The notes beneath the pieces are model-generated. The model had not been told where the DNA came from and ran no database searches. It was given only the letters and a program-made list of their open reading frames with translations. From the NCBI GenBank assembly GCA_903916595.1, contig CAIWXI010000055.1:7870-71869 (forward strand): a stretch of 64,000 bases of DNA, given 5' to 3'. Position numbers and translations under genes: made by a program. This document shows, in pieces, positions 13,684 to 30,423 of the stretch; within the stretch, counting starts at the first letter, position 1; every line of letters begins with the position of its first letter. The DNA is from an uncultured Bacteroidales bacterium (GTDB lineage Bacteria > Bacteroidota > Bacteroidia > Bacteroidales > FEN-979).

Positions 13684-14487
13684 TTACTTATGCTGGCTGA
13701 ATAACCATTCCATCATCAAAGGATCGCTGTAAGCTGCCAACCATGCAAAATGGCCGATACCAGGATAAAAAGTAAGCCCTGCACGTGACCCGGCCCTGGT
13801 CAAAGCGGTAATCATATCAAGGGAATAAAGAGGATTTACAGCGGCGTCTTCTGATCCATGAAAGATCCAGACTGGAATATGTGCAACAGATGCAGCTTTT
13901 GAGACATCACCACCTCCACAAACGGGAACAGCAGCAGCAAATAAACGTGGGTACCTCTCAATCGCATCGTAGGTTCCATAGCCTCCCATCGAAAGCCCGG
14001 TAATATAGATACGGTTCGTGTCGATCGAAAATGTTTTTATAAGCTGATGAATCAGTTCCAATACAAGTTCCATTGGTTTTGACGGATCCGGCCGAAGCCT
14101 CAATTCCCCGGTTTTTTCATTTTCGGCAAAGTTAGACCATTCCTGGTTTGCCGGGCATTGAGGAGCAATGACAATAGCCGGGTGCATGACCATTGCCTGG
14201 TCCGTCGCAAAATTCATTACACCCCATTTTAACTGAGCCTCGTTATCATTTCCCCGTTCACCTGAACCATGCAAGAAAATGACGAGAGGATATTTCCTCA
14301 CAGTATCATAATCAGGGAATAGCAGACGGTAATTCAGGGTATCGCCTTTACCGTTTGCGTACTTGTTAAAACAGAACCGGGATGATGATTGAGCCCATAT
14401 GCAGCTTGAACCTGTCAAACAGAAAAAGGCAATGAGAAAAAGAACTGGTCTCGATTGACCGTTGTTCCGGGAGTTTTTCTGATCCAT
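13684..14487 (-). CDS. secreted alpha/beta hydrolase (esterase / S9-like)
   Basis: Signal peptide, nucleophile elbow GLSMGGYG (G-x-S-x-G), and later HGSEDAAV and GIGHF, consistent with a Ser/Asp/His triad. Confidence 0.7.
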   Translation of the reverse strand: MDQKNSRNNGQSRPVLFLIAFFCLTGSSCIWAQSSSRFCFNKYANGKGDTLNYRLLFPDYDTVRKYPLVIFLHGSGERGNDNEAQLKWGVMNFATDQAMVMHPAIVIAPQCPANQEWSNFAENEKTGELRLRPDPSKPMELVLELIHQLIKTFSIDTNRIYITGLSMGGYGTYDAIERYPRLFAAAVPVCGGGDVSKAASVAHIPVWIFHGSEDAAVNPLYSLDMITALTRAGSRAGLTFYPGIGHFAWLAAYSDPLMMEWLFSQHK

Positions 14488-14645
14488 ACATTGATTTTAT
14501 TTTCCTTATTTCACTGCAAAATTACAGGATAAAAGGGTTGTAGTTTCAAAAATTTTGGTCGCTCCCTTTTACCACAGCAGCTTGCTCCATTTGCTGGTAT
14601 GCTATCAGAAGACACAGAGGCGCAAAAGAAGGCCATTATAACAGT

Positions 14646-14699
14646 TTTTTACGATTATTTACTCCTATTGTTATTTTCTTACTTGTATTTCTTGGAGAA
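14646..14699 (+). promoter_or_regulatory. phased-TTAC conserved element, copy 3 (upstream of lipoprotein / precursor A operon)
   Basis: TTTTTACGATTATTTACTCCTATTGTTATTTTCTTACTTGTATTTCTTGGAGAA. Ungapped hand alignment to copy 1 gives about 40/54 identities. TTAC occurs at offsets 4, 14 and 34. A -7-like TTACTTTG follows at 14715-14722. Confidence 0.55.
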
Positions 14700-14784
14700 C
14701 AGGATTTGTCATTATTACTTTGTTGATGATATTAATGGAGAAATCCAGTTAAACAATATACACTTGAACCTAAAACAAAGTGAC

Positions 14785-15435
14785 ATGAAAAAAAACATTG
14801 GATTATTTATTTGCGGACTCCTCCTTTCAGCAACAATGGGGGTCGCCCAGAAACTAACTTCCGGCAGTCTGGGGGCATTAAAAGGTGAAACGACTCTGAA
14901 TGTAATGTTTGATTATTCAAACGTGACCGTTGGCAATCCGGTAAACCCCTTCATGTCAAAGAAAGGTATTACTGAAAAGGAGTATGTAGAACAAAAAACC
15001 TCAGAACTCAATGCAAAAAAACCAGGTGACGGGGACCGCTGGGCCCAGGCCTGGCAGGATGACCGTCAAAAACTTTTTCAGCCGGCTTTCCTGCAGGAAC
15101 TCAACGATAAACTTGAAAAACAAGGATTAGTCGCGAAAGAAAATGCATCCGATGCCAGGTACACGCTGGTAGTGAAAACTATTCTTGTTAATGTGGGGTT
15201 TAACATCGGGATGTCAAAAAAGGAAGCATATATCAACCTGGTGATCGATATTGTAGAAACAGCAGATCATTCAAAGGTAGCTGCTTCGGTTGAAATGAAT
15301 AATGTACTTAAAAAGGTCCAGATGTCTTACGGTGATATGACTTTCGATTTTGCAGTCGGCCAACGCCTGCAGGCATGTTATGAGCAAGCCGGCATATCCT
15401 TTGGTAAATTTCTCTCAAAAGGATTATCCAAATAA
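14785..15435 (+). CDS. secreted protein or lipoprotein of unknown function
   Basis: The track ORF starts at 14599, but its first 186 nt cover the conserved noncoding element. ATG 14785 gives the signal/lipobox-like peptide MKKNIGLFICGLLLSATMGVAQ. Confidence 0.55.
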   Translation: MKKNIGLFICGLLLSATMGVAQKLTSGSLGALKGETTLNVMFDYSNVTVGNPVNPFMSKKGITEKEYVEQKTSELNAKKPGDGDRWAQAWQDDRQKLFQPAFLQELNDKLEKQGLVAKENASDARYTLVVKTILVNVGFNIGMSKKEAYINLVIDIVETADHSKVAASVEMNNVLKKVQMSYGDMTFDFAVGQRLQACYEQAGISFGKFLSKGLSK

Positions 15436-15596: not shown

Positions 15597-15917
15597 ATGA
15601 AAACAAAACAAGTCATTGAAATGCAGCTCATCGAAAAAGCGATGAAAGATCCCGATTTCAGGAAGCGGCTTCTTGAAAACCCGAAAGCAGTCATTCAGGA
15701 AATGACGGGGTTTGAACTTTCTCCATCCCTCAACCTGAGAATTCTCGAAGAGGATCCTCACACAGTGTACCTGATCCTTCCATTTATTCCGTCTCAACTA
15801 AATGAAAATGAACTGGATGAAACTGAGCTGGAAAGGATAGCAGGAGGGGGGCAATTTACAGGGTTCTCTTTTTGTCATACCTGTGGTTGTGACTCTTTTA
15901 CCCGTGAATGTGAGTAG
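15597..15917 (+). CDS. NHLP-leader RiPP/bacteriocin precursor A (core GQFTGFSFCHTCGCDSFTRECE)
   Basis: MKTKQVIEMQLIEKAMKDPDFRKRLLENPKAVIQEMTGF...TVYLILP...ELDETELERIAGG shows the nitrile-hydratase-like leader pattern ending in a double-glycine site. The track start at 15441 (TTG) looks like a spurious extension. An alternative ATG lies at 15582. Confidence 0.85.
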   Translation: MKTKQVIEMQLIEKAMKDPDFRKRLLENPKAVIQEMTGFELSPSLNLRILEEDPHTVYLILPFIPSQLNENELDETELERIAGGGQFTGFSFCHTCGCDSFTRECE

Positions 15918-16725: not shown

Positions 16726-19329
16726 ATGAAAAAAATAATCCTGTCTCTCCTGTTTGCTGTGGTATTGATCAGCAGCGGGTTTGGAAAAACCGTTGAAGTA
16801 AACCGTGCAAAAAATGTTGCGTCAAATTACCTGGCTTCAATGCCAACCCGGTTTCCACAGGGAATTCCCGGAGGTCTGAGCCTGTGTTATACGGCTGCGG
16901 AAAACAACACCTCCGCAATGAAGGCATCCTCAGCGCCATTATATTATGTTTTTAATATAAACAGCGCCTATGGTTTTATCATTATTTCGGCGGATGATGT
17001 TGTCATTCCGGTGCTGGCTTATTCCGATGAAACCAGTTTCTCTGCTGATAACATTCCACCTAATGTTGCAGGCTGGCTGAAGGGGTATGAGAATGAGATC
17101 AGTCATGCCATCAGCACGAACCTGGATCAGGCTCCTGAAGTTCAGTCGGAATGGACCGCCCTGGTCAAAGGCCCTCTGCAGGGCCATGCGCTTAAGTCGG
17201 CAACCGGAGTTAATGCTCTTATCACAACCATCTGGGGTCAGGACCCGTTCTATAATGATCTATGTCCGTACGATAATACCGCTGCTGAGCGGACCGTAAC
17301 CGGATGTGTTGCCACAGCTATGGCCCAGGTCATGAAATATCATGCTTATCCCACCACCGGTATCGGAAGTTATTCTTACAGCACCACCCGTTATGGAACC
17401 CTGTCGGCTAATTTCGGGGCAACGACTTATAACTGGACCGCCATGCCCAACAACGTGACCACAGCAAACACTGCCGTGGCCACCCTGATGTATCATTGCG
17501 GGGTGGGTGCCAAAATGGACTACAACGTGAGTGCCCAGGGAGGAAGTGCAGCATACGTCGTTGCTACCGACGATCCGAAATGTGCTGAAAATGCACTGAA
17601 AGACTATTTCGGTTATGCCACAACTTTGCAGGGCAAAACGAAATCAAATTACACCAACACCGAGTGGATCAACCTGCTGAAAACCGAACTTAATGCCAGC
17701 AGGCCGATGGTCTATGCAGGGGGAGCGCATTGCTTTGTCTGTGACGGTTATGATGACAGTGATAAGTTCCACTTCAACTGGGGCTGGTCGGGAAGTTACG
17801 ACGGATTTTACGCCCTTACAGCTCTGATACCGGGTGGGACCGGGACCGGCGGGGGCAACGGGAATTACACCAACGGACAGGAAGCTGTTATCGGGATTCG
17901 TAAGCCGGCTTCGGGGGGAGGCGGAGACAGGTTTTTCAAGCTTGCATTAAATGCAGCGGTCACCTGCCCATCCGACATCATCAATTACGAAGATTCCCTC
18001 TCCTTTCACACCGATATCATTAACAATGGCCAGTCGACGTTCAGCGGCGATATTTCAGCCTGTATCTTTGATACCAACGGGATCTTTATTCATGAAGTCC
18101 AGACCATCAAGGGAGTTGCACTCACCGCCGGCAGCCATTTGCCAAACGGTGCAACTTTCACAAACCCCGGGCTCACCTCCATGCTTCCCAACACGTATTT
18201 CGTGGGTATTATGTACAGGTCGGCCGATACAAACTGGATCATTGTTCCCGATACCAATGCCTTCCACAACAATAAACGGCTGGTGGTCATAAACACCAAC
18301 CCCGTCGAAATGTATGCGGCCATGAACATAAGCCCCGGCTTAAATATGACACAGGGAGATGCAGTATCGGTGCAGGCCGACATCGTCAATCACGGAACCA
18401 CCGATTTTAACGGCACTCTGGACCTTTCGATTTACGACATGGAAGGGTATTATGTGAATTTTATAGGCGAGAAGACAAATTTCACACTCCCGGTGAACCA
18501 GCACACCATGGGTCTGACATTCAGTACATCCAGCATCAATGTCCAGCCCGGCAGCTATCTTATAGCTATGCTGTTTCAGCCCGCCGGATCGTCGGACTGG
18601 CAGTTGATAGGATCCACCGCTTATGCAAACCCGGTTAAAATCCAGGTCAATGCAGTTCCTTTGATCGCCGATCAGTATGAGCCCAATAACACTTCCGCAA
18701 CGGCTTCTTCCCTGCCGGTAAGTTTCGCAACAAACCCGGCCATTATTAATACTGTTGGTGCAAACTGCCATACAGGCATAGATTTTGACTTTTACACACT
18801 TTCTCTCCCTGCAGGCTATAATTATGTTATTACCGGCAATCTGGTTGATGCTTATAATGACCCTGACCAGGTATATACCCTGGATGCACTCTGGTCGTAT
18901 TCCACCAACGGCATAACCTGGTCTGAGGCTTATGATGACACCATTCCTGATATTACAATGAACAACGGCGGAACTATTATGTTCGACGTTGAACCATATT
19001 ACCCCGGTCAGACAGGAACGTACCAGTCAGTTGTACGGATAAGCAGGAACGCGCTTGGCGTAAATGATAAAACGCAGCCTGATCAAGTCATGGTTTACCC
19101 CAATCCTGTTACTGATTACCTCTTTATTGAATCAGCAGACCAACGGGCAGTCTTATCAGGAATTAAGCTGTTCAGCGTGACTGGATGCGAGCTTACCACA
19201 GTGAACTTTACCGGGCTTAAGTCCGGCTGCAGCATGTCCGTTACTAACCTTCAGGATGGAACATATATCCTTGCAGTGACAACTGTCAGCGGCATTATTC
19301 ACAGGCAGATCGTCATCCGGAAAAAATAA
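16726..19329 (+). CDS. C10-family (streptopain/SpeB-like) cysteine peptidase with PPC domain and T9SS C-terminal sorting domain
   Basis: Catalytic Cys motif TGCVATAMAQVMKYH, His motif GGAHCFVCDGYD, and FHFNWGWSG. There is an N-terminal Spi-inhibitor-like propeptide. EPNNTSATASSL...DFDFYTL indicates a PPC domain, and the C-terminal VYPNPVTDYLFIE...GTYIL indicates a T9SS CTD. Confidence 0.85.
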   Translation: MKKIILSLLFAVVLISSGFGKTVEVNRAKNVASNYLASMPTRFPQGIPGGLSLCYTAAENNTSAMKASSAPLYYVFNINSAYGFIIISADDVVIPVLAYSDETSFSADNIPPNVAGWLKGYENEISHAISTNLDQAPEVQSEWTALVKGPLQGHALKSATGVNALITTIWGQDPFYNDLCPYDNTAAERTVTGCVATAMAQVMKYHAYPTTGIGSYSYSTTRYGTLSANFGATTYNWTAMPNNVTTANTAVATLMYHCGVGAKMDYNVSAQGGSAAYVVATDDPKCAENALKDYFGYATTLQGKTKSNYTNTEWINLLKTELNASRPMVYAGGAHCFVCDGYDDSDKFHFNWGWSGSYDGFYALTALIPGGTGTGGGNGNYTNGQEAVIGIRKPASGGGGDRFFKLALNAAVTCPSDIINYEDSLSFHTDIINNGQSTFSGDISACIFDTNGIFIHEVQTIKGVALTAGSHLPNGATFTNPGLTSMLPNTYFVGIMYRSADTNWIIVPDTNAFHNNKRLVVINTNPVEMYAAMNISPGLNMTQGDAVSVQADIVNHGTTDFNGTLDLSIYDMEGYYVNFIGEKTNFTLPVNQHTMGLTFSTSSINVQPGSYLIAMLFQPAGSSDWQLIGSTAYANPVKIQVNAVPLIADQYEPNNTSATASSLPVSFATNPAIINTVGANCHTGIDFDFYTLSLPAGYNYVITGNLVDAYNDPDQVYTLDALWSYSTNGITWSEAYDDTIPDITMNNGGTIMFDVEPYYPGQTGTYQSVVRISRNALGVNDKTQPDQVMVYPNPVTDYLFIESADQRAVLSGIKLFSVTGCELTTVNFTGLKSGCSMSVTNLQDGTYILAVTTVSGIIHRQIVIRKK

Positions 19330-19397
19330 AGCTTACTTTTGATTCTGCAAGGGTCTGCTGCCTGACCGGAAAAAAATTGATTACGCATTGAACACCA

Positions 19398-20462
19398 ATG
19401 ACTGGAGCTCTTCAAGTTTTGATTGCTGAAGCCATCAGCAGCGCAATAGGTTTTCTGTTATGTTCAAGGGATGGGCAAGGGCTGTGGTCCGATTTCCGCC
19501 TTCCCATCGGGGAGAGCAGCGGGTGGGTCACCGGGTTTGTAGGTTCAGTCCTCGCCGGCTCTGGTGATGACCGTGTCATAAGGGAAACGAAGAATGTCTG
19601 GAATGTGTTTGCCGCTCAAAAACTGTTCACCGGTCACGGGGGATGGGGATATAACTTGCTCACCCCCGAGGATGCCGACAGCACGGTATGGGGTATCAGG
19701 TTTGCTCTAAGCCTCGGCCTGGATGGGAAGTTCAGGACAAAGGCAGCGGAGGAGTTTCTTCTGAAGCATTGGTTAACAGATGGCGGGATCACCACATACA
19801 TCCTTGAAAAAGAGCTTAGAAAACTGATTGGCGCCACGCCTGAAGAGGACATCCGGGGATGGACGGGTTCACACCTCTGTGTGACCGCCGCGGCTGCAGG
19901 GATTCCTGGGTTCAGCAGCATCCTTTTACCCTACATCCTGGAACATCAGCTTCCCGCCGGGAACTGGAATGGTTACTGGTGGAGCGATTCCGCTTATGCC
20001 ACAGCTCTTGCGACGGAGGCCCTGCTTGTCGCAGGAATGACTGAACACCGCGATGCAATTGACCGGGCGTTCTCCTGGGCGATGCAGCATTTCGGCAGGG
20101 AAGCTTTCGTTTCAAATGATATCTTTCGTGAGGGATCTCCCTTTGCCACAGCCCTGGCTTTAAAGACCCTGCTTCTTGCCGGGGAGGTTGACAAGACCCG
20201 TGAAAAATCCGGGGCGGTTGCCCGATGGCTCATCAGCCGGCAGCAGGACAACGGATCGTGGCAACCCTCTGCCTTGCTGCAGGTTCCTCCGCCTTTTATG
20301 AAAATACCGGTCGATCCCGGGAGCTGGCCTGATGGAAAAGGAGCTGCCTGGGGCACCGTGGTTACCGATCACAGGTCGTTGTTTACCACGGCAGCCGTAC
20401 TCGATTCGCTGGTGTTCTATCAGAAGACCCATTCAGGAACGATAAAGCCGGAAGCACTATGA
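19398..20462 (+). CDS. QW-repeat alpha/alpha-toroid protein (squalene-cyclase / prenyltransferase-repeat-like), single domain
   Basis: Repeats of the type a..(F/W/Y)L...Q..dG.W are present: GFLLCSRDGQGLW, YILEHQLPAGNW, RWLISRQQDNGSW and GHGGWGY. PEDADSTVWGIRFAL resembles the DxDD(T/S)A segment of class II cyclases. No signal peptide. Confidence 0.6.
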   Translation: MTGALQVLIAEAISSAIGFLLCSRDGQGLWSDFRLPIGESSGWVTGFVGSVLAGSGDDRVIRETKNVWNVFAAQKLFTGHGGWGYNLLTPEDADSTVWGIRFALSLGLDGKFRTKAAEEFLLKHWLTDGGITTYILEKELRKLIGATPEEDIRGWTGSHLCVTAAAAGIPGFSSILLPYILEHQLPAGNWNGYWWSDSAYATALATEALLVAGMTEHRDAIDRAFSWAMQHFGREAFVSNDIFREGSPFATALALKTLLLAGEVDKTREKSGAVARWLISRQQDNGSWQPSALLQVPPPFMKIPVDPGSWPDGKGAAWGTVVTDHRSLFTTAAVLDSLVFYQKTHSGTIKPEAL

Positions 20463-21526
20463 AACATTCGACCCCAGCCGAAAAGTATGCTAAACTTTAT
20501 ATCACGCAGGATCAGGTGCTTGGCGCTATGTCCGGCCGTTTCGGGCCCTTTTATCTTTCGGGTGGCGCTGCCCTCTCAAGGTATTACCTGAACCATCGCT
20601 TCACCTACGATCTGGATTTTTCAGCTAACATTTTACCCTGCTTTGAGAGAAAGGCTGCTCCTGTAGTTGACGTGCTGAAAACACAATGCCATGTTACTGA
20701 TGACGAACCAGCAGTTTACGCGCGATATTTCCACCTGTGGATACAGGGCAGCGAAAAGCTCAAGATCAGTATTTCAAACGACATTTCCGAACAATTGGGG
20801 TTGCCGTTTATGGCAGGGCAGGTTCCTGTGGATAATATGAAGAACATGCTGGTTAAAAAACTCAAAACCATTCTGGATCGTGATAACCCTAAAGATCTGT
20901 TCGATATCGTAAGTATTGCATCGGCCTACAGTTTTCATTGGGGTGATGTGTTGAAGTATGCGCAAAAGAAAGCCGTCATGGCCCAGGTGAATCTCTTATT
21001 GCAATTCAGCCGGGTTGCCTTCCGGTTTAACAGTATATGGCGCGGACGGGAACCAAAAGATCTGTTCAGCCTTTTGGGGGCTCCTCCGCCTATAGGTTTC
21101 AACAGGGTCTATCTGACTGCAAATATCGGGCGGAACGGCAGTAATTATGAAAAACCTTCTTCCACCATGGAATCCCTTTCGCGAGAGCTGCGACGTACTG
21201 CCTACAGGCTTAAAGCGATTTCAGAGTCGGATGGCCTCGCGAATGAGGCGCAGATCGCTGACATTCCTTCCTGTTTCAATCTGACACTGGGAGGGGCCTC
21301 CATAAGGATTGACCTGCCAGCGGTTTCTGTAAGGGACAAGGCCCTTAAACAATTCAGCCGGGTTCCGGCAGGACTTTACCAGGGTCTGGAATGGATGCAC
21401 TCTCCTGTTGCGGCAGAAGAACTGAAAGCGAAGTTCAAAATGATCAGGAATGATCTTTTCCTGGCCGGAGAAAATTCACTTGGCATTGGAAAAACTCCCA
21501 TTGATAAGGCCAGGCCGGGGCTATAA
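20459..21526 (+). CDS. AbiEii/DUF1814-like nucleotidyltransferase-fold protein
   Basis: N-terminal FYLSGGAALSRYYLNHRFTYDLDF fits the GG(T/A)AL...R.(S/T).D(I/L)DF pattern of AbiEii-family NTases. The start overlaps the upstream stop (ATGA at 20459-20462). Confidence 0.5.
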   Translation: MKHSTPAEKYAKLYITQDQVLGAMSGRFGPFYLSGGAALSRYYLNHRFTYDLDFSANILPCFERKAAPVVDVLKTQCHVTDDEPAVYARYFHLWIQGSEKLKISISNDISEQLGLPFMAGQVPVDNMKNMLVKKLKTILDRDNPKDLFDIVSIASAYSFHWGDVLKYAQKKAVMAQVNLLLQFSRVAFRFNSIWRGREPKDLFSLLGAPPPIGFNRVYLTANIGRNGSNYEKPSSTMESLSRELRRTAYRLKAISESDGLANEAQIADIPSCFNLTLGGASIRIDLPAVSVRDKALKQFSRVPAGLYQGLEWMHSPVAAEELKAKFKMIRNDLFLAGENSLGIGKTPIDKARPGL

Positions 21527-21568
21527 GTTCAATCAGGGCAAGGACTGGTCGATGATTCCGGACTTTCC

Positions 21569-22600
21569 CTAGCGTATCATGGTTCCGAAATAGCCCTTGC
21601 ATTCAATAGGTGCATTTTCTTTGTACACAATTTTCAGGTGGTTTAGACCCCTGATATAGTTTGCCGGATAGGGAAACCTGCACTTTGTTTTTCCGCAGAA
21701 GCTCAGCAGGGCCTCCCGTTTTCCAGAGGTCACCAAATTGTCCGATTCCAGCACATCCAGCGCAGCCTCCCACCCCGGATTAAACCGGGGCTGGCTGAGA
21801 TTGTTAAAAAGCATCTCCAGGGCCAGATATGGAAGGATCTCCTTCCCTGTATTGATATTGCAGGCGAAGTAATCGAAAAGGCCGGCATATCGATCGGTCA
21901 GGAACCTGACTTTCTGAAAATCACCCGGCCAGCCGATATCCCGGAGGTAAGCTTCCAGGCGCACAGCGTTTATTTTTGTCAGCACCAGCCTCACTGCCTC
22001 CATATACCTGGGGATCATCAGACCGGTCTGGTATAAATTTGCATGTTCGGGAAGTGCATGGACGGCTGTTCTCAGACTTCCGGCCATCTCATCCGGGAAC
22101 GGAGTACCGGTAATGATCCGGTAGATTTCATCAAGGACACGGAGGGTTCCTTCAGATTGGGCTTTTCGGCCTGCTTTTTCGTCAACAATGATCCCGAAAA
22201 AAATATTCGGGCAGCGATTATACGATATTCCGTCAAAGTCAAACTCAAGCCAGACGGACCCTACCGAGACATCTAAAAGATGTCCCTGGGTATTCCATGC
22301 AATAAAAAACTTCCTTATTCTTTGCCAGAGGGGATCAGCGAGCAAATTTTCATGCAGATCCGACATTGGACTGGTACCGGCCAGTATCTTTGCCCCTTCA
22401 GTGTCTTTCCCGATCAGAAACGAAAAATCGCAGGCGGCCGCGGGCTCACCCAGCCGGCTTTCAAAGCCAAAATCGCGCGACAGGTCAAAAGGAAAAAGTG
22501 AACATAGCTCTTTCAATGAGTCCATGCAGCCACCCCCCATCAAGGTGGAATGAAGGGGGGTGGAAATGATTTCGATATGATCGGCGAAGGAAAGTTTCAT
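21569..22600 (-). CDS. 343-aa cytoplasmic orphan protein, last gene of the precursor B operon
   Basis: Long ORF with no signal peptide or TM segment. No family recognised. Strand-like segments (WLEFDFDG, HLKIVYK, ECKGYFG) vaguely recall ABBA prenyltransferase K-x-Y strands, but this is unverified. Confidence 0.6.
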   Translation of the reverse strand: MKLSFADHIEIISTPLHSTLMGGGCMDSLKELCSLFPFDLSRDFGFESRLGEPAAACDFSFLIGKDTEGAKILAGTSPMSDLHENLLADPLWQRIRKFFIAWNTQGHLLDVSVGSVWLEFDFDGISYNRCPNIFFGIIVDEKAGRKAQSEGTLRVLDEIYRIITGTPFPDEMAGSLRTAVHALPEHANLYQTGLMIPRYMEAVRLVLTKINAVRLEAYLRDIGWPGDFQKVRFLTDRYAGLFDYFACNINTGKEILPYLALEMLFNNLSQPRFNPGWEAALDVLESDNLVTSGKREALLSFCGKTKCRFPYPANYIRGLNHLKIVYKENAPIECKGYFGTMIR

Positions 22601-22642: not shown

Positions 22643-22930
22643 CTATGATCCCTGGCCGGGCCCCCCCCAACCTGTCCCCCCGGCAACTGAAGCCAGCTCT
22701 GCTTCGGTGAGTTCGTCTTCAGCAGCATCTCCCCGAAAGGGAGGAAGAACAAGGTAAACGGTTTTCTGATCCTCCTGCAGAATCTTTATTTTTATTGTTT
22801 CCGGAAGATTTATTCCAGTCTCCAGTTCGAAAATTAATTTTGGATTATCAATCAGCTTCTTACGGAATGAATCATCTTTCATCGCTTTTTCGATGATTTG
22901 CTCTTCAAGCTTTTTTCTGAGATTTGACAT
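22643..22930 (-). CDS. NHLP-leader precursor B (core TGWGGPGQGS as assembled)
   Basis: MSNLRKKLEEQIIEKAMKDDSFRKKLIDNPKLIFELETG...TVYLVLPP...ELTEAELASVAGG has the same leader family as precursors A and C. The core-coding part contains a G8 homopolymer, so the C-terminus is uncertain. Confidence 0.8.
   Translation of the reverse strand: MSNLRKKLEEQIIEKAMKDDSFRKKLIDNPKLIFELETGINLPETIKIKILQEDQKTVYLVLPPFRGDAAEDELTEAELASVAGGTGWGGPGQGS
22661..22668 (-). repeat. G8 homopolymer (C8 on plus strand) inside the core-coding region of precursor B
   Basis: Coding strand reads ACA GGT TGG GGG GGG CCC GGC CAG GGA TCA TAG. Confidence 0.95.
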
Positions 22931-22959: not shown

Positions 22960-24918
22960 TTATCGTTTGACGACAAGTTTCTTTGTCTCCATCCAGTCGG
23001 CTGTTTTAATTACGATATTATAGATTCCCTGGGAAGCCTGGGAAAGGTCAATACTATATTCTTTTTTTCCGCTGAATTTTTTCTCAAGGATGGCCCTGCC
23101 TGACTGATCTTCAACAAGGACATTCAGCGTTAAACAGCTTTCATTTGATGGTACGATCCGGAAAATACCCATTGTGGGATTCGGGTAGATCGAAACCTGG
23201 TTGCCCGAGCTTCCTGCCGGGTTGGAAACCCCGAGGGGGTCAATTATTTTAAAGGAAGCGATCCTTGTCTTGGGAGTACCAGCTCCTGTTGCATACTGAT
23301 TCGTGTACCAGAAAGTCTGGTCATCGGAAGGATCCACAGAGAGGGATGTATAATCACCCCAGCGTTCTGGCGATGAACCGCCGGACTGTGAGGTAGTACC
23401 CACCCATATTGTATCTTCAGCAATGTCGAGGATAGAGTTACCGGCCAGGTAAGCGGTAGCGGACTGACCACAGTAGCGAATCCCGGGGTATTCGCCATCG
23501 CTGGATATCGAATATCCCAGCCCTATGGTGTTGGATCCGTTCAACATGATGCTGCCCATCCACCGGCTGTTTGTATCAGGGGCATAAGTGCCTTCCTGTC
23601 TTATGCTCCAGTCGCTGCCGGTTTTTCGCAATTCATACCATCTGATCCCGGCCTGGCCCTTCTGATCTATATTTACAGTGTGGCAGCAAACGATGGTCTG
23701 GTACGATCCGAAGTTACGGTACTGGGGCACATTCATGATAATAGTGGGCACGGCATCAACTTTCTGGGTGGTTCCTTTCTGCCTGATATCTTCCCAGTTA
23801 CTGCCGAAGTTACTGTTAAAGGGTGTCACATCCAGTTGTTGAACACGGTTGAATGTCGATGCCGCCGTGTCGGTCCAGTTCACAGCCAGTTCATATATCC
23901 AAATCTGGTCTTTGGTTCCGCTGGAAGCATCATCGTTAATGGCAATATAAATGCCGGGAGATCCTGCCGGAGCAAAGGGTCCGTCATTATCTACAGGAGG
24001 AACAACCCTGAATCCTCCGCTTCCGCCCGGACGATAGGGATTTTTAATTCCGAAAAACTTGGGAATACTATCTCCCACCAGCATCTTCGACCTCTCATAA
24101 ACATAGGTATCCCTTCCCCCACTATTATTATTATCCCCCATATAATACCCATCCTGCCATACGCCGAATTTAGGGTAATCGGGCATTATGTCGGCCTTGA
24201 AAGAATACGGGTACCAGGTTCCCGTAGGGTCGTTTGTTGAGGATACGGCCATAAGAATATAATTCGGGGTCCCGTCTTTGGGCACCGAGAATTCTGTGGC
24301 CAGCCAGCGATCGGCCTGTTCGTCATACAGGATGACCGGATCACCGTCGTTCCGGTTTGCTCCCGGCTTATTGCCAAACAGCAGGTTCATATCAGTAGGC
24401 CCGGCTACAAGTGTGCCTGTTTTATCATATATAGCATACGTGTCATTCATCGTCTGCATGTAATGGTTTTTACCAACGGTCCCGTTATCGTCGGAAGGCC
24501 GGGATCCTGACTCCTGTCCTTCAAAATTTTTCAGCGGACTGCGGAAAAGCTTCTGAGTTCCCATATTTTTCTGCCAGGCCCCGTCCTCACCTTTTGGGAG
24601 GGCTGTTTCAGCAAAAGGATAGGTACGCTCCGACTTTTCTTCATTAATTGTCCGTTTGCTGTTTTTAAGTTTCAGCGCATTGAATTCATCAGCAGTTAAT
24701 GCAGGAAGATCGCGTAAAGGACGGGTTTCACCCAGGAAAGTCCCGGTCCCCACTATGGTAGGGTGAACCGGTATTGTTGGTGTGAATGAGTTTTGATCTG
24801 GCTTTTTAGCCGAAGAAGATGATTGGTTCTGGGCATAGACGCCCCTTGCCAGGAGCAGTATTATCAGCAACATGAAAAGGGAATAATAGTTCCCCGAAGA
24901 AGCAGAATGTGTTTTCAT
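22960..24918 (-). CDS. T9SS-secreted protein of unknown function (possible beta-propeller)
   Basis: Signal peptide (LLIILLLARGVYAQ). C-terminal VSIYPNPTMGIFRIV...GIYNIVIKT...KKLVVKR indicates a T9SS sorting domain. There are Asp-box-like segments such as SSTNDPTGTW. The stop lies 29 nt before precursor B. Confidence 0.75.
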   Translation of the reverse strand: MKTHSASSGNYYSLFMLLIILLLARGVYAQNQSSSSAKKPDQNSFTPTIPVHPTIVGTGTFLGETRPLRDLPALTADEFNALKLKNSKRTINEEKSERTYPFAETALPKGEDGAWQKNMGTQKLFRSPLKNFEGQESGSRPSDDNGTVGKNHYMQTMNDTYAIYDKTGTLVAGPTDMNLLFGNKPGANRNDGDPVILYDEQADRWLATEFSVPKDGTPNYILMAVSSTNDPTGTWYPYSFKADIMPDYPKFGVWQDGYYMGDNNNSGGRDTYVYERSKMLVGDSIPKFFGIKNPYRPGGSGGFRVVPPVDNDGPFAPAGSPGIYIAINDDASSGTKDQIWIYELAVNWTDTAASTFNRVQQLDVTPFNSNFGSNWEDIRQKGTTQKVDAVPTIIMNVPQYRNFGSYQTIVCCHTVNIDQKGQAGIRWYELRKTGSDWSIRQEGTYAPDTNSRWMGSIMLNGSNTIGLGYSISSDGEYPGIRYCGQSATAYLAGNSILDIAEDTIWVGTTSQSGGSSPERWGDYTSLSVDPSDDQTFWYTNQYATGAGTPKTRIASFKIIDPLGVSNPAGSSGNQVSIYPNPTMGIFRIVPSNESCLTLNVLVEDQSGRAILEKKFSGKKEYSIDLSQASQGIYNIVIKTADWMETKKLVVKR

Positions 24919-25080: not shown

Positions 25081-26967
25081 CTAAGAAAGATTATCTTCAT
25101 TTTCACGACTGCTGGCAATGGAATTCCTAAAATAAGAAGGCGTTATACCGATCTGTTTTTTGAAGATAGAATGAAACGTAACTTTTGTACTGAAACCTAC
25201 CATTTCCCCTATGCCTTCTATGGAGAGATGGTCATATTTTGATTCTGTAAGAAGCCTCCTCGCCTCCTTGATCCTCAGCTCGTTTATAAAGCTGTTGAAG
25301 TTCTGTTTGTAATTATCATGGATCATGTGCGAAAGGTAAGTGCGGTTTGTGTTTAATTTCCTGCAGATATCATCTACAGTGAGGCCTGGTTCAAGGAAAG
25401 GTTTTTCGTCCTGCATTAACCGGCTGAACTTTACCAACAGACCCAGGGTAGTGTTTTCAATTTCATTATCCGGAGGGATAACCATGATTTGATCATCAGA
25501 GATGCTTATGCTTCTCCGGGCTTCAATCTGTTTCTCGGTTTTTACGATTTCCAGGTTCTTCCTGACGATTTGCCTGAATGCCCTGCTCTTTTGCCGGTAT
25601 AACATCGAAATCACAAAACCCAGCACTAAAAGTACAAAAGCAACTCCGGCTAAGAATTTTATCTGTAATTTCTGAAGATTGTTGGCTTTTTGCAATAAAA
25701 GATTTTCCTGCTCTTTCTTTTCTGTTTCAAAACGGGTTTGCATTTCAAGAATTGCCTTGGTTTTATCTTCGCTAAAGATGCTGTCACCTGCAATCCGGTA
25801 TCTCGAAAAAAAATCTTTGGCAGCAGATTTATCGCCGGTGATTATACTTATTTCGGTCAAATAGCGGCTGCATTTCTGTATCATTTCAAGTGAATTTTCC
25901 TCACTGGCATAGTCGAATGCTTCCCGGAACATTTTGGTCGCAGCTGCCAGATTGCCTTTATTATATAAGATTTCACCCAGGCTCACGTTCAAGCTGGCAA
26001 TCTCAGCGCCCGATCCGATACTATTGGCCAGGGCCAGGGCTTGCTCATAATATTCAATTGCTTTTGGTTCGTTCTTCAGCAAATCAGCATATACATCTCC
26101 CAGACAGTGAAGGGAAATTACGATCCCGTATTTATTGCCGATTTCTTTTTTCAGCTCAAGAGATTTCCGATGATAAAATAAGGCTGAATCCGGTTGTTTG
26201 AGGTCTACGTAGAGATCTCCAAGAGCAGTATAATTAGTGGCCAGGTATTTCTTGTTCTTCCTTTTCAGGTTAATTGAGATGGCTTTCTTCAAAAACAAGC
26301 TGGTCATTTTATTATTGTCCCAGTCAAAATATACCAAACCGAGATTGTTATAGGTTGCCGCCAGGCCGTCTGAATCGGCAAGCTCCTCTTTCAGCCTGGC
26401 TGATTCGAGAAAGTATTTTGTGGCTTTTTCATAGAATGATGTTTGTTTATAGGTGGAAGCCATGTTGTTGTATAGCTTCGCCATTTGCGGCTTGTCATTT
26501 ACAGGCAGAAGTATTTCCCTTGCCTTTTCATAATAATTCAACGCGTCGGAAAATCTGCCCATGTAATAGTAAGTAGTTCCGATATCAGTATAAATTTTTC
26601 CGATGTCAAGTGGTTCTTTTAGTTCCCGGGCTATGCTTAGCGCATGATCATAGCAGGCCAGAGAACTGTCATATTCGCCCAGCATCTGATAAATGTTGGC
26701 AAGATTCCGCTGCATGGACATGCCGGCTAATGTTTTTCCGAAATCATGCTTTTTGCTGAATTGCAGCAGCTTTTCTTTTGCTATAAGGTAATTTCCTGAT
26801 AACCTGAAAAGCTCAAAAGACTTCTGTAAAAAAAACAGGGCGCTGTCTGATTTACCTGAATTGATAAAGCCTTCAGAAAGTAAAAGACAGGAGTCGGCCG
26901 ATTTCTCCTGGGTAAAAACGAAATAGCCGGATAGAAAAAAAATCAGCAATAAAATCAATCGCTTCAT
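25081..26967 (-). CDS. transmembrane one-component regulator: extracytoplasmic TPR domain - TM - cytoplasmic AraC-type HTH
   Basis: N-terminal signal/anchor MKRLILLLIFFLSGYFVF, then about 400 aa of TPR-like repeats, a TM segment FLAGVAFVLLVLGFVISMLY, and a C-terminal AraC HTH (TVDDICRKLNTNRTYLSHMI...IGEMVGFSTKVTFHSIFKKQIGITPSYFR). Confidence 0.8.
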   Translation of the reverse strand: MKRLILLLIFFLSGYFVFTQEKSADSCLLLSEGFINSGKSDSALFFLQKSFELFRLSGNYLIAKEKLLQFSKKHDFGKTLAGMSMQRNLANIYQMLGEYDSSLACYDHALSIARELKEPLDIGKIYTDIGTTYYYMGRFSDALNYYEKAREILLPVNDKPQMAKLYNNMASTYKQTSFYEKATKYFLESARLKEELADSDGLAATYNNLGLVYFDWDNNKMTSLFLKKAISINLKRKNKKYLATNYTALGDLYVDLKQPDSALFYHRKSLELKKEIGNKYGIVISLHCLGDVYADLLKNEPKAIEYYEQALALANSIGSGAEIASLNVSLGEILYNKGNLAAATKMFREAFDYASEENSLEMIQKCSRYLTEISIITGDKSAAKDFFSRYRIAGDSIFSEDKTKAILEMQTRFETEKKEQENLLLQKANNLQKLQIKFLAGVAFVLLVLGFVISMLYRQKSRAFRQIVRKNLEIVKTEKQIEARRSISISDDQIMVIPPDNEIENTTLGLLVKFSRLMQDEKPFLEPGLTVDDICRKLNTNRTYLSHMIHDNYKQNFNSFINELRIKEARRLLTESKYDHLSIEGIGEMVGFSTKVTFHSIFKKQIGITPSYFRNSIASSRENEDNLS

Positions 26968-27394: not shown

Positions 27395-28201
27395 ATGATT
27401 GGCCGGCAGATTTTCAGAAAAACGTCGCTTGAGAAAATGATGACCCCCGAGGACCTGGATGAATTATTGCAGGTCAACCCGACCAGGACATGGCTGATGT
27501 TTGCAGGTATAGGTGTTGTTATTGCCGGGATGCTGGCCTGGGGAATCCTTGGGTCGGTAACGCAGTATGTGAAAGGATTCGGGATCATCAAGACCCGGGA
27601 GCTGCCCCGGGAGGTAGTATCGGTTTGTTCGGGGCAGGTTGATTCGATTTTCTGTAAGACCGGTGATGAGGTTGCCCAGGGCCAAAAATTGTTAATGATT
27701 CTCCAGCTGCACGAACAAACAGGTGTAACTATTTTCGCTTCCTGCCCGGGCGAAATCACCGGACTGAATGTCAGGGAAGGCACTTATGTTGAAACGGGCG
27801 CTCCAGTGCTTGAGATGATGCGAAATGAAGGCCATACCGGGACCTTTCCCGAGGTGATCTTCTTTGTGGAGGAACAGGAGGTTTCAAAGCTGAAAAAGGG
27901 GATGGTTTCCAACCTGCAAATTGATAAGGGGGGAGTGCCTCCTGAATTTTTAAATGCGGTGATCAATTTTATTGCTGATTACCCGGTTTCGAAAAATTCA
28001 ATCCAAAAATATTTTCCGGATGAGGAAATAACGAAGCAACTCAGCAACAGGGATTTCCATGAAGTCAGGGCAAGCCTGATTATCGATACGGTCGGGAAAA
28101 CGGCCCGCGCAAAGGAGGCTCTGCATTCATTAAACGGCCTATCCTGCCGCACTGTTACCACAGTGGCCCGCCGAAGTCCGGTTGCTTATCTTTTAAACTG
28201 A
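27395..28201 (+). CDS. HlyD-family membrane-fusion/adaptor protein of the NHLP bacteriocin export system, unusually short
   Basis: N-terminal TM segment (WLMFAGIGVVIAGMLAWGILG). The split lipoyl-like halves GQVDSIFCKTGDEVAQGQKLLMI and GEITGLNVREGTYVETGAPVLEM are only about 16 aa apart. It is the first gene of the exporter trio. Confidence 0.65.
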   Translation: MIGRQIFRKTSLEKMMTPEDLDELLQVNPTRTWLMFAGIGVVIAGMLAWGILGSVTQYVKGFGIIKTRELPREVVSVCSGQVDSIFCKTGDEVAQGQKLLMILQLHEQTGVTIFASCPGEITGLNVREGTYVETGAPVLEMMRNEGHTGTFPEVIFFVEEQEVSKLKKGMVSNLQIDKGGVPPEFLNAVINFIADYPVSKNSIQKYFPDEEITKQLSNRDFHEVRASLIIDTVGKTARAKEALHSLNGLSCRTVTTVARRSPVAYLLN

Positions 28202-28224: not shown

Positions 28225-30423
28225 ATGAGCTTTGAACCGATTCACTTCCTTCATTCAGTTTACTGCCGGCTTGCAGGTATAAGGCGGGTTAAAACTCCCA
28301 CGGTTCTGCAGATGGAGGCCCTGGAATGCGGGGCAGCTTCTCTGGGGATCGTATTGGCCTGCTTCGGGAAGAATGTTCCCCTCGAAAAGCTGAGGGTCGA
28401 CTGCGGTGTATCACGCGACGGGAGCTCGGCAAGCAACATCTCCAAAGCAGCAAGGAATTATGGCCTGGAAGTAAAGGCTTATAAAAAAGAGCCGGAAGAA
28501 CTTAAAAAGCTTCCTCTCCCGATGATCGTATTCTGGAATTTTTACCATTTCCTGGTTGTCGAAGGGTTTGGGAAAAACAAAGTTTACCTAAACGACCCGG
28601 CTTCCGGCCCACGTACGGTGGACTATAAAACCTTTGATGAATCCTTTACAGGAGTGGTATTGACTTTTAAACCCGGACCCGGATTTCAGAAAGAAGGCGA
28701 AAAAACGAAGTTTCTTCCCTTGTTGCTGAAATGGTTAAAAGGGTATGGAAACAGCCTGTTGTTCCTTTTCCTTGTAGGACTTGCCCTTATTATCCCCGGA
28801 CTGGCCATCCCGGTATTTTCAAAAATATTTGTCGACCAGATCCTGATCCGGCATACGGAAGCCTGGATCGTTCCCCTGCTTACAGGCATTGCAATTACTA
28901 CCATACTACGTGCTCTGTTGTCGTGGTTGCAGCAGCATAGCCTGGTACGATTGGAAATGAGTCTTTCACTTAAGAATTCCTCGAAATTTCTCTGGCACGT
29001 ACTCCATCTTCCAATGTCGTTTCATAACCAGCGGCCGGCCGGTGATATTACCATGCGGGTAAACATCAACGACCAGATTGCCATGCTGCTTTCGGGGCAG
29101 CTTGGCAATACTTTCCTGAATTTATTCATGATCGCATTTTACGCGGCCCTGATGTGTTATTACAGCCTTCCGCTGGCTGCGGTTGCCATTTTCATCTCAC
29201 TGGTAAACCTTCTCGCACTGAGATATATTTCAAGGAAACGGGTTGATTCAAATCAAAAACTCCTGCAGGATAACGGCCGTTTATTCGGGCTTTCTTCTTC
29301 AGGTTTGCAGATGATAGAGTCATTAAAAGCAACAGCTTCCGAATCGGAATTTTTCTCACGCTGGGCCGGCTACCAGGCAAAATTGCTGAACATCCAGCAG
29401 AGACTGGGGGTGCTTACCCAGACCCTGCAGGTAATCCCTGTATTTCTTACTACTCTGAGCACCCTGGTGATACTGTTTCTCGGGTCACATTATATTATCA
29501 GCGGGGTGATAACTGTGGGTACTTTTGTCGCATTCCAGTCGCTGATGGCCAGTTTTAATCAGCCTATCGTAGCCCTGGTTAACCTTGGAAGCGCACTGCA
29601 GGATGTGCAGGGAGGGCTGAAACGGATAGAGGATGTTTATAATTATCCTACAGGCCAGCCGGATGCTGATGCAACTGAATCTCAAAAAGCCGGAAAAGTT
29701 TTAAAACTGCAGGGATCGGTTGAACTTAAGGATGTGACGTTTGGTTACAGCCCGCTGGATTCGCCCCTGATCACTGGTTTTTCTCTGCACCTGAACCCGG
29801 GATCCAGGGTCGCTATCGTTGGAAGGACCGGTTGCGGAAAGTCGACCATGGCCAACCTGGTCAGCGGATTGTATGATCCATGGAAAGGAGAGATACTGTT
29901 TGACGGCAAACCCAGAGAGAGCTTTTCTCATACTACCCTGAATAATTCCATTTCCATGGTCGATCAGAACCTCTTCCTTTTTGAAGGAACTGCCAAGGAG
30001 AATATTACTTTCTGGGATCAGACCATTGCCGACAAAGATGTAATACAGGCGGCTAAAGACGCCTGCATTCATGAAGACATTGCGGCCAGACCCGGAGCAT
30101 ATGAAAGCATGATATCCGAAAACGGGAGGAATCTGAGCGGGGGTCAGAGGCAGCGGATCGAAATTGCAAGGGCGCTTGCCACCAAACCATCTGTATTGAT
30201 ACTTGATGAGGCCACCAGTGCCCTGGATGCAAAGACAGAGCAGATGATAGATATCAATATCCGTAAAAAAGGATGCACCTGCCTCATCATCGCTCACCGC
30301 CTGAGCACGATCCGTGACTGCGACGAAATCATCGTGATGGACAGGGGGAGGATAGTGCAAAGAGGAACCCACCAGGAACTGATAATCCAGCAGGGATTAT
30401 ATAACGAACTGATCAAAGAATAA
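28225..30423 (+). CDS. bacteriocin-processing ABC transporter with N-terminal C39 peptidase domain (double-glycine leader cleavage/export)
   Basis: C39 motifs QMEALECGAASLG (Cys), NFYHFLVVEG (His) and NDPASG. There is a 6-TM ABC membrane domain, Walker A GRTGCGKST, signature LSGGQRQRIEIARAL and Walker B LILDEATSALD. Confidence 0.9.
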   Translation: MSFEPIHFLHSVYCRLAGIRRVKTPTVLQMEALECGAASLGIVLACFGKNVPLEKLRVDCGVSRDGSSASNISKAARNYGLEVKAYKKEPEELKKLPLPMIVFWNFYHFLVVEGFGKNKVYLNDPASGPRTVDYKTFDESFTGVVLTFKPGPGFQKEGEKTKFLPLLLKWLKGYGNSLLFLFLVGLALIIPGLAIPVFSKIFVDQILIRHTEAWIVPLLTGIAITTILRALLSWLQQHSLVRLEMSLSLKNSSKFLWHVLHLPMSFHNQRPAGDITMRVNINDQIAMLLSGQLGNTFLNLFMIAFYAALMCYYSLPLAAVAIFISLVNLLALRYISRKRVDSNQKLLQDNGRLFGLSSSGLQMIESLKATASESEFFSRWAGYQAKLLNIQQRLGVLTQTLQVIPVFLTTLSTLVILFLGSHYIISGVITVGTFVAFQSLMASFNQPIVALVNLGSALQDVQGGLKRIEDVYNYPTGQPDADATESQKAGKVLKLQGSVELKDVTFGYSPLDSPLITGFSLHLNPGSRVAIVGRTGCGKSTMANLVSGLYDPWKGEILFDGKPRESFSHTTLNNSISMVDQNLFLFEGTAKENITFWDQTIADKDVIQAAKDACIHEDIAARPGAYESMISENGRNLSGGQRQRIEIARALATKPSVLILDEATSALDAKTEQMIDINIRKKGCTCLIIAHRLSTIRDCDEIIVMDRGRIVQRGTHQELIIQQGLYNELIKE

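Follow-up and report, generated by a model that had tools for sequence, protein, structure and literature searches.

Two overlapping genes, one for a terpene cyclase-like protein of 354 aa and the other for an AbiEii-like nucleotidyltransferase of 355 aa, are part of an island for peptides synthesised by the ribosome and modified after translation (RiPPs) of the nitrile hydratase leader peptide (NHLP) type in an uncultured freshwater Bacteroidales bacterium. The island was examined in a stretch of 64,000 nucleotides (positions 7,870 to 71,869 of the forward strand of contig CAIWXI010000055.1, GenBank assembly GCA_903916595.1), which is called the window here. The conserved partner of the cyclase is not the nucleotidyltransferase but a 343-aa protein, predicted to be a prenyltransferase, that is encoded convergently to the pair. 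The nucleotidyltransferase belongs to a long form that, relative to its short relatives, has lost a small partner, gained an insertion and changed at three active-site positions. We consider it reasonably likely that the prenyltransferase and the cyclase together make a cyclised prenyl-Trp, and that the nucleotidyltransferase is a former toxin turned accessory enzyme of the peptide pathway. A preliminary description of the same DNA had reported the two open reading frames (ORFs) and the ATGA overlap at 20459-20462 in which the cyclase gene stops and the nucleotidyltransferase gene starts; all are present as described, as are the three peptides that it quoted (YILEHQLPAGNW, RWLISRQQDNGSW and PEDADSTVWGIRFAL). 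The co-occurrence counts given below are based on 107 fetched loci (L001-L107) annotated with home-made profiles, and the features of the window are listed in Table 1.

The terpene cyclase-like fold that had been proposed for the 354-aa protein was confirmed both by a match to the Pfam family SQHop_cyclase_C (34 bits, cut-off 26.1) and by phmmer, which aligned residues 10-339 with residues 25-361 of MstE, the merosterolic acid synthase (PDB entry 6SBB and others), with an E value of 1e-61. A profile of 34 homologues matched MstE with an E value of 1e-117 and also found 6IJ1 ('Prenylcyclase'), 8PAJ and 8PAK, and its match to squalene-hopene cyclase was only partial. The structures of MstE (PDB 6SBB-6SBG) were reportedly described by Moosmann et al. 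in 2020. The window protein shares with MstE the single beta-domain alpha/alpha barrel of approximately 350 aa, over which the two can be aligned end to end, and the motifs D-A-D-(S/T)-T, GW, CVTAA, YWW, GSxFATA and QW, though identity is moderate, at 34 % to a cyanobacterial MstE-family member (not MstE itself).

Though the preliminary description regarded this protein as a half-size cyclase with a degenerate DxDD motif, neither property is a defect. The segment PEDADSTVW carries D92 and D94, and D92, D94, T96 and W98 are invariant in the 34 homologues. The acid motif is D-A-D-S-T in the window protein and D-A-D-T-T in MstE, where D-x-D stands in place of DxDD for protonation of the alkene (PMC12414744). 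As D-x-D and a length of approximately 350 aa are usual for the MstE family, there is nothing abnormal in the apparent absence of a second Asp or in the half size. The protein consists of one beta-domain barrel with no gamma domain and nothing further attached, and it keeps all of the MstE catalytic residues. Judged by its sequence, it is a full-length monodomain class II terpene cyclase of the MstE family with an intact acid motif. The substrate of MstE is a geranylgeranylated hydroxybenzoate, in the meroterpenoid pathway of a cyanobacterium, whereas the cyclase in the window lies in an NHLP island and would presumably act on a prenylated Trp in a peptide.

Other assignments were considered and rejected. 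A LanC-like cyclase or a Cys prenyltransferase resembling the farnesyltransferase beta subunit does not fit the full-length homology to MstE and the acid motif, and no Zn-ligand pattern was seen in the alignment. Kinship with the thioester-containing domain (TED) of alpha-2-macroglobulin was suggested only by weak matches below threshold, and PADLOC returned no match to a defence system for either the cyclase or the 343-aa protein.

The 343-aa protein has no recognised family. No Pfam or NCBIfam prenyltransferase family (e.g. LynF/TruF/PatF, DMATS) matched it at E <= 0.1, and none of its 61 homologues is annotated. An AlphaFold2 model built from an alignment of homologues, with a predicted local distance difference test (pLDDT) score of 94.7, consists of repeated helix-helix-strand-strand units, and when it was compared to the PDB using Foldseek all of the best 50 matches were ABBA aromatic prenyltransferases, with E values down to 6e-6. 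Bacterial indole and Trp prenyltransferases came first, and the cyanobactin enzymes PatF, PagF and PirF were included; as the template modelling (TM) score was about 0.5, the likeness to ABBA enzymes is at the level of the fold only. The model predicts that this protein has the ABBA prenyltransferase fold. In addition, its profile matched the N-terminal halves of two fusion proteins of approximately 700 aa from alphaproteobacterial metagenome-assembled genomes (MAGs), one from Rhodospirillales (L023, E 1e-39) and one from Aliidongia (L024, E 2e-32), and the C-terminal halves of both are MstE-like cyclases.

Prenyltransferase and cyclase are found together in nine distinct loci. They are fused only in L023 and L024, their genes overlap in L018, and in the window each is encoded by a gene of its own, with the two on opposite strands. 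Both occur together with NHLP precursors in the window and in L001, L004, L007, L011, L012, L018, L019, L020 and others. NHLP precursors flank the cyclase in at least ten distinct Bacteroidota-type loci (among those listed, L001, L004, L011, L019, L020, L021 and L022) and in one Chromatiales locus. Peptide tailoring, one of the roles offered in the preliminary description, was the right direction, but the gene for the partner enzyme had been missed.

Three loci have features of their own. Examination by eye placed the Rhodospirillales fusion (L023, 8673-15106) among lasso-peptide-like genes (asparagine-synthetase-like, small PqqD-like), with a 68-aa ORF beside it that looks like a leader peptide of the Nif11 type. 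A Bacteroidia MAG contig (L019, 1-12071) carries a hyper-diversified version of the system, with at least ten NHLP precursors, nearly all of which include Trp-Ser/Thr motifs and Cys, together with one LanM, one prenyltransferase and two MstE-like cyclases. At 2861-7832 in L038, two tandem pairs of a long-form nucleotidyltransferase and an NHLP precursor with Tyr-type cores (AGYTYADPTEVKISYNGNC and GGKYTADTSLPSEKKSKP) come after a prenyltransferase gene, and there is no cyclase on the 13-kb contig; Tyr may be prenylated there without subsequent cyclisation.

RiPPs with cyclised isoprenoid moieties are said to have been described by Hubrich et al. in 2024 (Chem). According to a review (PMC13290415), RiPPs with cyclised terpenes were first reported in 2024, and the two characterised maturases that it names, NctPC with an ABBA domain and ChrPC with a domain like a trans-isoprenyl diphosphate synthase, are both fusions in which a C10-C20 chain is transferred onto a Trp of the RiPP and is then cyclised by an MstE-like domain; both geranylgeranylate the Trp before cyclisation. 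The window resembles these systems, as they are described there, in combining an MstE-like cyclase with a peptide prenyltransferase (ABBA in NctPC), in the long NHLP/Nif11-type leaders and in the Trp acceptor, which is a predicted one in the window. It differs in that its enzymes are split and convergently transcribed rather than fused, in that its cores are very short and Gly-rich, in that it lacks LanM, and in that a DUF1814 nucleotidyltransferase is coupled to the cyclase, an arrangement not reported for NctPC or ChrPC in the available review text (PMC13290415). By analogy, the window appears to encode the logic of NctPC and ChrPC in separate genes. The ABBA barrel is also common to the 343-aa protein and MppC, PagF, PatF and PirF, though the best structural matches of the former are the bacterial indole prenyltransferases and DMATS and not the cyanobactin enzymes. 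MppC modifies, in a leader-dependent manner, a Trp in a peptide whose leader is of the Nif11 type, and no cyclase partner is mentioned for it in the part of the source available (PMC12715784).

The precursor cores support Trp as the prenyl acceptor, as this residue is enriched in the cores of loci that include the prenyltransferase and cyclase. It is present in 28 of 35 distinct cores from such loci, where it makes up 5.8 % of residues, compared to two of seven cores from elsewhere (Fisher p 0.014, a value that, like that of the second core test below, is uncorrected for shared ancestry). The first Trp is at core position 3 or 4 in 14 cores, and Ser or Thr follows Trp in 19. The core of NHLP_B, the precursor beside the prenyltransferase in the window, is only 10 residues long with a single Trp at position 3. 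NHLP_B is the presumed substrate of the prenyltransferase and the cyclase and, putatively, also of the nucleotidyltransferase. Using prenyl diphosphates of the cell, the ABBA enzyme would place a polyprenyl chain on Trp3 of NHLP_B with its leader still in place, the cyclase would then protonate the terminal (distal) double bond via D94 and so cyclise the chain, and the C39-peptidase ABC (ATP-binding cassette) transporter would cleave after Gly-Gly and export the product.

The identification of the second protein of the pair as an AbiEii-like nucleotidyltransferase was also upheld. Residues 26-166 match the Pfam family AbiEii (40.1 bits, cut-off 22.5), the AbiEii models of PADLOC match this protein only, and the N-terminal approximately 180 residues of its AlphaFold2 model resemble the DUF1814 toxins JHP933, MenT1 and MenT3/TglT in Foldseek searches. 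It shares with AbiEii, MenT3 (TglT) and JHP933, which belong to type IV/VII toxin-antitoxin systems, the Pol-beta-type fold and the four DUF1814 motifs as defined previously for AbiEii (PMC3985639). Motifs I-IV are intact (G35 G36; R47, D51xD53; K134...R141; K145-D146-x-x-D149), and G35, R47, D51, D53, K134, R141, D146 and D149 are invariant in 15 of 15 long forms. The protein consists of a nucleotidyltransferase core (residues ~8-185), a lineage-specific insertion (~186-300) and a C-terminal tail that is common to the short relatives. An exhaustive search found 585 relatives, almost all of 220-240 aa, that match residues ~8-185 and the last ~60 residues. The insertion in the long form found in the window is about 115-130 aa, and a profile search of PDB sequences and Pfam with residues ~172-312 found only designed coiled coils and noise. 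With a pLDDT of 69 for the model, we make no claim on the fold of the insertion.

When the active sites of the 15 long forms were compared to those of 115 short relatives, differences were found at three positions. Position 49, two residues ahead of the DxD, is equivalent to TglT S78, the phospho-acceptor; in AbiE/MenAT systems a Ser or Thr conserved there serves in neutralisation of the toxin. Ser occupies it in 114 of the 115 short forms; in the long forms it is Thr (seven, including Thr49 of the window protein), Ala (five), Ser (two) or Val (one). The adjacent position 50 is acidic in 114 short forms and in none of the long forms. Position 104, equivalent to E146 in motif 2a of TglT, is acidic in 110 of the short forms, and in 11 of the 15 long forms it is Ser or Ala, with Ser in the window clade. 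The roles of S78 and E146 are those assigned in TglT (PMC7205606), relative to which the window protein additionally carries the insertion of ~115 aa.

The long form also lacks the partner gene found with its relatives. Among the short relatives with an ORF of 75-130 aa upstream, 39 of 43 such ORFs belong to one homologous family of ~95-110 aa, and a profile of this family found no match in any long-form locus. AbiEi is absent too, as had been noted, the gene upstream being that for the cyclase in the window and one for a glycoside hydrolase, a type IX secretion system (T9SS) protein or a C10 peptidase in other loci. Thus, whereas AbiEii, MenT3 and JHP933 have an antitoxin partner, the long form in the window has no upstream partner of the AbiEi, MenA or any other type, and has an NHLP precursor instead. 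The small upstream ORFs, which include a 'WDY' motif, precede the short forms (~220-240 aa) in L046-L107 (e.g. L046 7697-8038 and L080 7709-8005) and have no match in Pfam; they probably represent an undescribed antitoxin family for this subgroup of DUF1814.

Every long-form gene recovered adjoins an NHLP precursor gene, and this holds for five clades, down to about 30 % identity. In the window clade (several loci, at least 74 % identity to the window protein) the cyclase and the prenyltransferase are present. Neither is found in the P0115 clade (57-60 %; L009, L013 and L030-L032), where the precursor is accompanied by a 652-aa T9SS protein, or in L014 (39 %), which also has an NHLP precursor. 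In L028/L029 (33 %), genes for a C10 peptidase, the nucleotidyltransferase and the precursor follow each other on one strand, the peptidase gene in L028 being immediately before the other two, and L038 (34 %) carries the two tandem pairs described above. In one MAG the nucleotidyltransferase is present as two paralogues (L012 and L013), and a separate precursor accompanies each of them. In the gene neighbourhoods, which the preliminary description proposed to check for NHLP or defence contexts, homologues of both the cyclase and the nucleotidyltransferase were found with NHLP precursors.

They do not, however, travel as the conserved two-gene module that had been proposed, as each occurs next to NHLP precursors without the other. 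The nucleotidyltransferase is found without the cyclase in L009/L013, L014, L028, L030 and L038, and it is missing from many prenyltransferase/cyclase clusters (L004, L018, L019, L020 and L022). Five distinct related loci have the ATGA overlap as well; two have a spacer of 58-59 nt in its place, while in L001 a prenyltransferase-precursor cassette is inserted between the two genes. As the nucleotidyltransferase pairs with precursors in clades that have no cyclase, its ATGA coupling to the cyclase is specific to one clade.

The cores that adjoin the nucleotidyltransferase have a signature of their own. With a median of 12.5 residues they are short, they are rich in Gly, and position 3 or 4 is Trp or Tyr in 11 of 12, compared to 13 of 30 other cores; this residue is Trp where the prenyltransferase and cyclase are present and mostly Tyr where they are absent. 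The C-terminal residue is Ser or Thr in eight of the 12, compared to two of the 30 (Fisher p 1.5e-4). The leaders of these precursors fall mostly into one clade of a neighbour-joining tree.

Strict pairing with a precursor, retention of the nucleotide- and metal-binding motifs and remodelling of the regulatory and active-site positions are together in keeping with recruitment of the nucleotidyltransferase as an accessory enzyme. It would no longer be a toxin, and its step in the peptide pathway would depend on neither prenylation nor cyclisation, neither of which would require it. Among the specific roles that can be envisaged, we tentatively rank highest, at somewhat less than even chances, nucleotidylation of a hydroxyl of the cognate precursor, the C-terminal Ser/Thr being the shared candidate acceptor. 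A fuller version of this proposal, which we put forward as possible but doubtful, is that the long-form DUF1814 proteins are an unrecognised family of RiPP maturases derived from toxins, that the insertion possibly serves in leader recognition, and that a hydroxyl, perhaps that of the C-terminal Ser/Thr, is nucleotidylated in short Gly-rich cores with an aromatic residue at position 3 or 4; the peptide from the window would then carry both a cyclised terpene on Trp and a nucleotide. No paper linking AbiEii/DUF1814 to NHLP or proteusin precursors was found in the searchable literature set. To our knowledge, the association of a domesticated DUF1814 nucleotidyltransferase with NHLP precursors has not been described before.

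Several observations weigh against the reading that we favour. We know of no DUF1814 enzyme that nucleotidylates a peptide. The nucleotidyltransferase gene is mostly convergent with the precursor gene and not co-transcribed with it, and their adjacency could in part reflect vertical inheritance within related Bacteroidota. The Ser at position 104 in the window clade could mean weakened catalysis, and the pLDDT of the model of this protein is moderate. One locus, L043, includes a Trp core and the nucleotidyltransferase but no prenyltransferase or cyclase within 13 kb. No dedicated farnesyl or geranylgeranyl diphosphate synthase gene was found in the island (annotation up to 40 kb; the genes beyond are apparently for polysaccharide synthesis), so that the prenyl donor must derive from general metabolism. 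Finally, the cyclase family is also found in non-peptide contexts. In an Actinoplanes genome (L006, GCA_008271795.1) a homologue is accompanied by PcrB, a B12-radical SAM enzyme, asparagine synthases, a carbamoyltransferase and glycosyltransferases, and this operon context indicates that the family serves non-peptide pathways too. The Actinoplanes homologue is presumably the 'Prenylcyclase' of PDB entry 6IJ1.

The Actinoplanes neighbourhood (PcrB, radical SAM enzyme, glycosyltransferases) and the fact that MstE cyclises a prenylated benzoate (PMC12414744) would be in keeping with a cyclase whose substrate is a non-peptide isoprenoid (e.g. a meroterpenoid or a membrane lipid) and whose place in a peptide island is due to chance. 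However, the many loci in which NHLP precursors flank the cyclase mostly include the ABBA prenyltransferase as well, the prenyltransferase-cyclase fusions sit in RiPP-like clusters, Trp is enriched in the cores and the window island has no small-molecule pathway genes, and we consider this explanation improbable. The preliminary description had also entertained a toxin-type or defence module, that is, a toxin-antitoxin or abortive-infection pair in which the cyclase-like protein has replaced AbiEi beside an AbiEii toxin. Though the homology of the second protein to AbiEii/DUF1814 and the retention of the ATGA overlap in five loci would suit such a pair, the cyclase is no conserved partner of the nucleotidyltransferase, each being found without the other in five or more loci and the two being separated by another cassette in L001. 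Moreover, the cyclase retains all MstE catalytic residues and is matched by no PADLOC model, and the nucleotidyltransferase differs from its toxin-type relatives at regulatory and active-site positions, including the phospho-regulatory Ser, which is not conserved in the long form. Such a module is very improbable indeed, and the co-occurrence data all but rule out that the cyclase serves as the antitoxin of such a pair.

For the nucleotidyltransferase, a role in self-protection or regulation ranks next after peptide nucleotidylation, and we consider it rather unlikely. The enzyme might, for instance, modify the product, the cellular target of the product or a tRNA in the producer, and tRNA is the substrate of known relatives (PMC7450476). 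The presence of one precursor per nucleotidyltransferase in L038 and L012/L013 would fit a one-to-one pairing like that of an immunity gene, as would its dispensability in the prenyltransferase/cyclase clusters that lack it (L004, L018-L020 and L022). However, it is a soluble cytoplasmic enzyme with no visible signal or membrane segment, a new substrate is suggested by the newly acquired insertion and the changed surroundings of the active site, and an enzyme-substrate relation accounts more readily for the core signature of the adjacent precursors. There is also little likelihood that the gene is a decaying, functionless remnant of a toxin-antitoxin system hitch-hiking in a recombination-prone island. 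Loss of the motif-2a acidic residue, of the phospho-Ser and of the partner gene could be read in that way, and the island is strongly rearranged between strains, but the full-length ORF is intact from 100 % to about 30 % identity, the eight motif residues named above are invariant in all 15 long forms and NHLP adjacency is kept in five clades. The retention of Ser104 across two clades speaks for a functional change rather than drift. Recruitment of the nucleotidyltransferase as an accessory enzyme of the peptide pathway remains the reading that we prefer.

The preliminary description placed the pair downstream of the C10 peptidase gene with no obvious terminator between them. Indeed, no terminator-like site is present in the 68-nt spacer between the C10 peptidase and cyclase genes, but the pair probably has its own promoter. 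TAnnTTTG is the Bacteroidetes -7 promoter consensus, and the block TACTTTTG, which includes this motif, lies 56 nt upstream of the cyclase start; the conserved block also precedes the cyclase gene in L011, L007 and L001. As the genes further upstream differ in these loci, the conserved block suggests a promoter that belongs to the cyclase-nucleotidyltransferase operon. In the convergent 42-nt spacer between the nucleotidyltransferase and prenyltransferase genes (21527-21568), the predicted RNA fold was no stabler than those of shuffled sequences, and no convincing terminator was found.

Table 1. Features of the window, with positions numbered from its first nucleotide
Feature	Position	Strand	Basis
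ORF of 1154 aa	999-4463	-	No Pfam family at E <= 0.001
NHLP_A precursor, Cys/Ser/Thr-rich core GQFTGFSFCHTCGCDSFTRECE	15597-15917	+	TIGR03793, 76 bits
C10 cysteine peptidase, T9SS-secreted, I69 propeptide, T9SS tail	16726-19329	+	Pfam
TACTTTTG, Bacteroidetes-type -7 motif TAnnTTTG	19334-19341	+	Read from sequence
Monodomain class II terpene cyclase, MstE family, 354 aa, QW repeats, D92-A-D94-S-T motif	19398-20462	+	phmmer, profile, Pfam PF13243
Long-form DUF1814/AbiEii-type nucleotidyltransferase, 355 aa	20459-21526	+	Pfam PF08843, Foldseek
Predicted ABBA (PT-barrel) aromatic prenyltransferase, 343 aa, convergent to the pair	21569-22600	-	AlphaFold2, Foldseek, profile
NHLP_B precursor, 95 aa, leader end ...VAGG, core TGWGGPGQGS (22646-22675)	22643-22930	-	NCBIfam TIGR03793 leader_NHLP, 83.8 bits
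T9SS-sorted protein, 652 aa, directly downstream of NHLP_B	22960-24918	-	Pfam, Por_Secre_tail sole recognised domain
TPR and AraC-type HTH regulator	25081-26967	-	Pfam
NHLP_C precursor, core YVNDYSCSPMCFY	26986-27279	-	Pfam NHase_alpha-like match, tblastn cross-hits
HlyD-like adaptor	27395-28201	+	Pfam
C39-peptidase ABC transporter	28225-30423	+	Pfam
Second ABC transporter	30435-33344	+	Pfam
Undecaprenyl-diphosphate-synthase-like gene, sole isoprenoid gene seen up to 40 kb	37200-37886	-	

Several of the surrounding genes recur in related islands. The genes for the HlyD-like adaptor and the two ABC transporters, which are predicted to provide export and leader cleavage for the island, also flank the cyclase in L004, L011, L020, L022 and L039. 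The TPR/AraC regulator is found again in L011, L012, L030 and L043, and homologues of NHLP_A (106 aa) are present in L011 and L001. The 652-aa T9SS protein has orthologues (64-88 % identity) beside NHLP_B-type precursors in L009, L013 and L030-L032, and a remnant in L014; it stays beside the precursor even in loci without the cyclase and prenyltransferase. C10 peptidases are recurrent in NHLP islands (L011, L012, L028, L033-L037, L039 and L043) and may have a role in peptide processing, perhaps as an extracellular trimming protease. Class II lanthipeptide clusters include LanM, and a LanM gene is beside the cyclase in the sister loci L001, L004, L011, L012, L019 and L020, whereas a tblastn search of the 64-kb window with the LanM of L001 found no match.

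Near-identical islands and close relatives were found in freshwater metagenomes and in the MAG 'uncultured Bacteroidales bacterium Loc090907-6m_bin-511'. A strain-level indel distinguishes the window (13684-15435) from L036/L045 (contig Ga0265593_1000006) and L001. Between an esterase-like gene and a gene for a 278-aa protein, sister genomes carry an extra sub-island that is absent from the window and includes NHLP precursors, LanM and a second set of cyclase, prenyltransferase and nucleotidyltransferase genes.

The cyclase half of the pair is explained by a kind of system described very recently, which in the window has split genes and a prenyltransferase that lacks annotation. Naturally separate enzymes for prenylation and cyclisation, together with a minimal core of 10 residues that has a single Trp, make the island convenient for studying each step on its own and for engineering. 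From the split genes, a family of ~345 aa with no database annotation can also be recognised as peptide prenyltransferases, which would improve genome mining. In the nucleotidyltransferase half, a toxin-antitoxin enzyme appears to have been recruited into natural-product clusters by a route that can be traced, its partner having been lost, its phospho-switch probably lost and a domain inserted, and our reading of its role predicts a new peptide modification.

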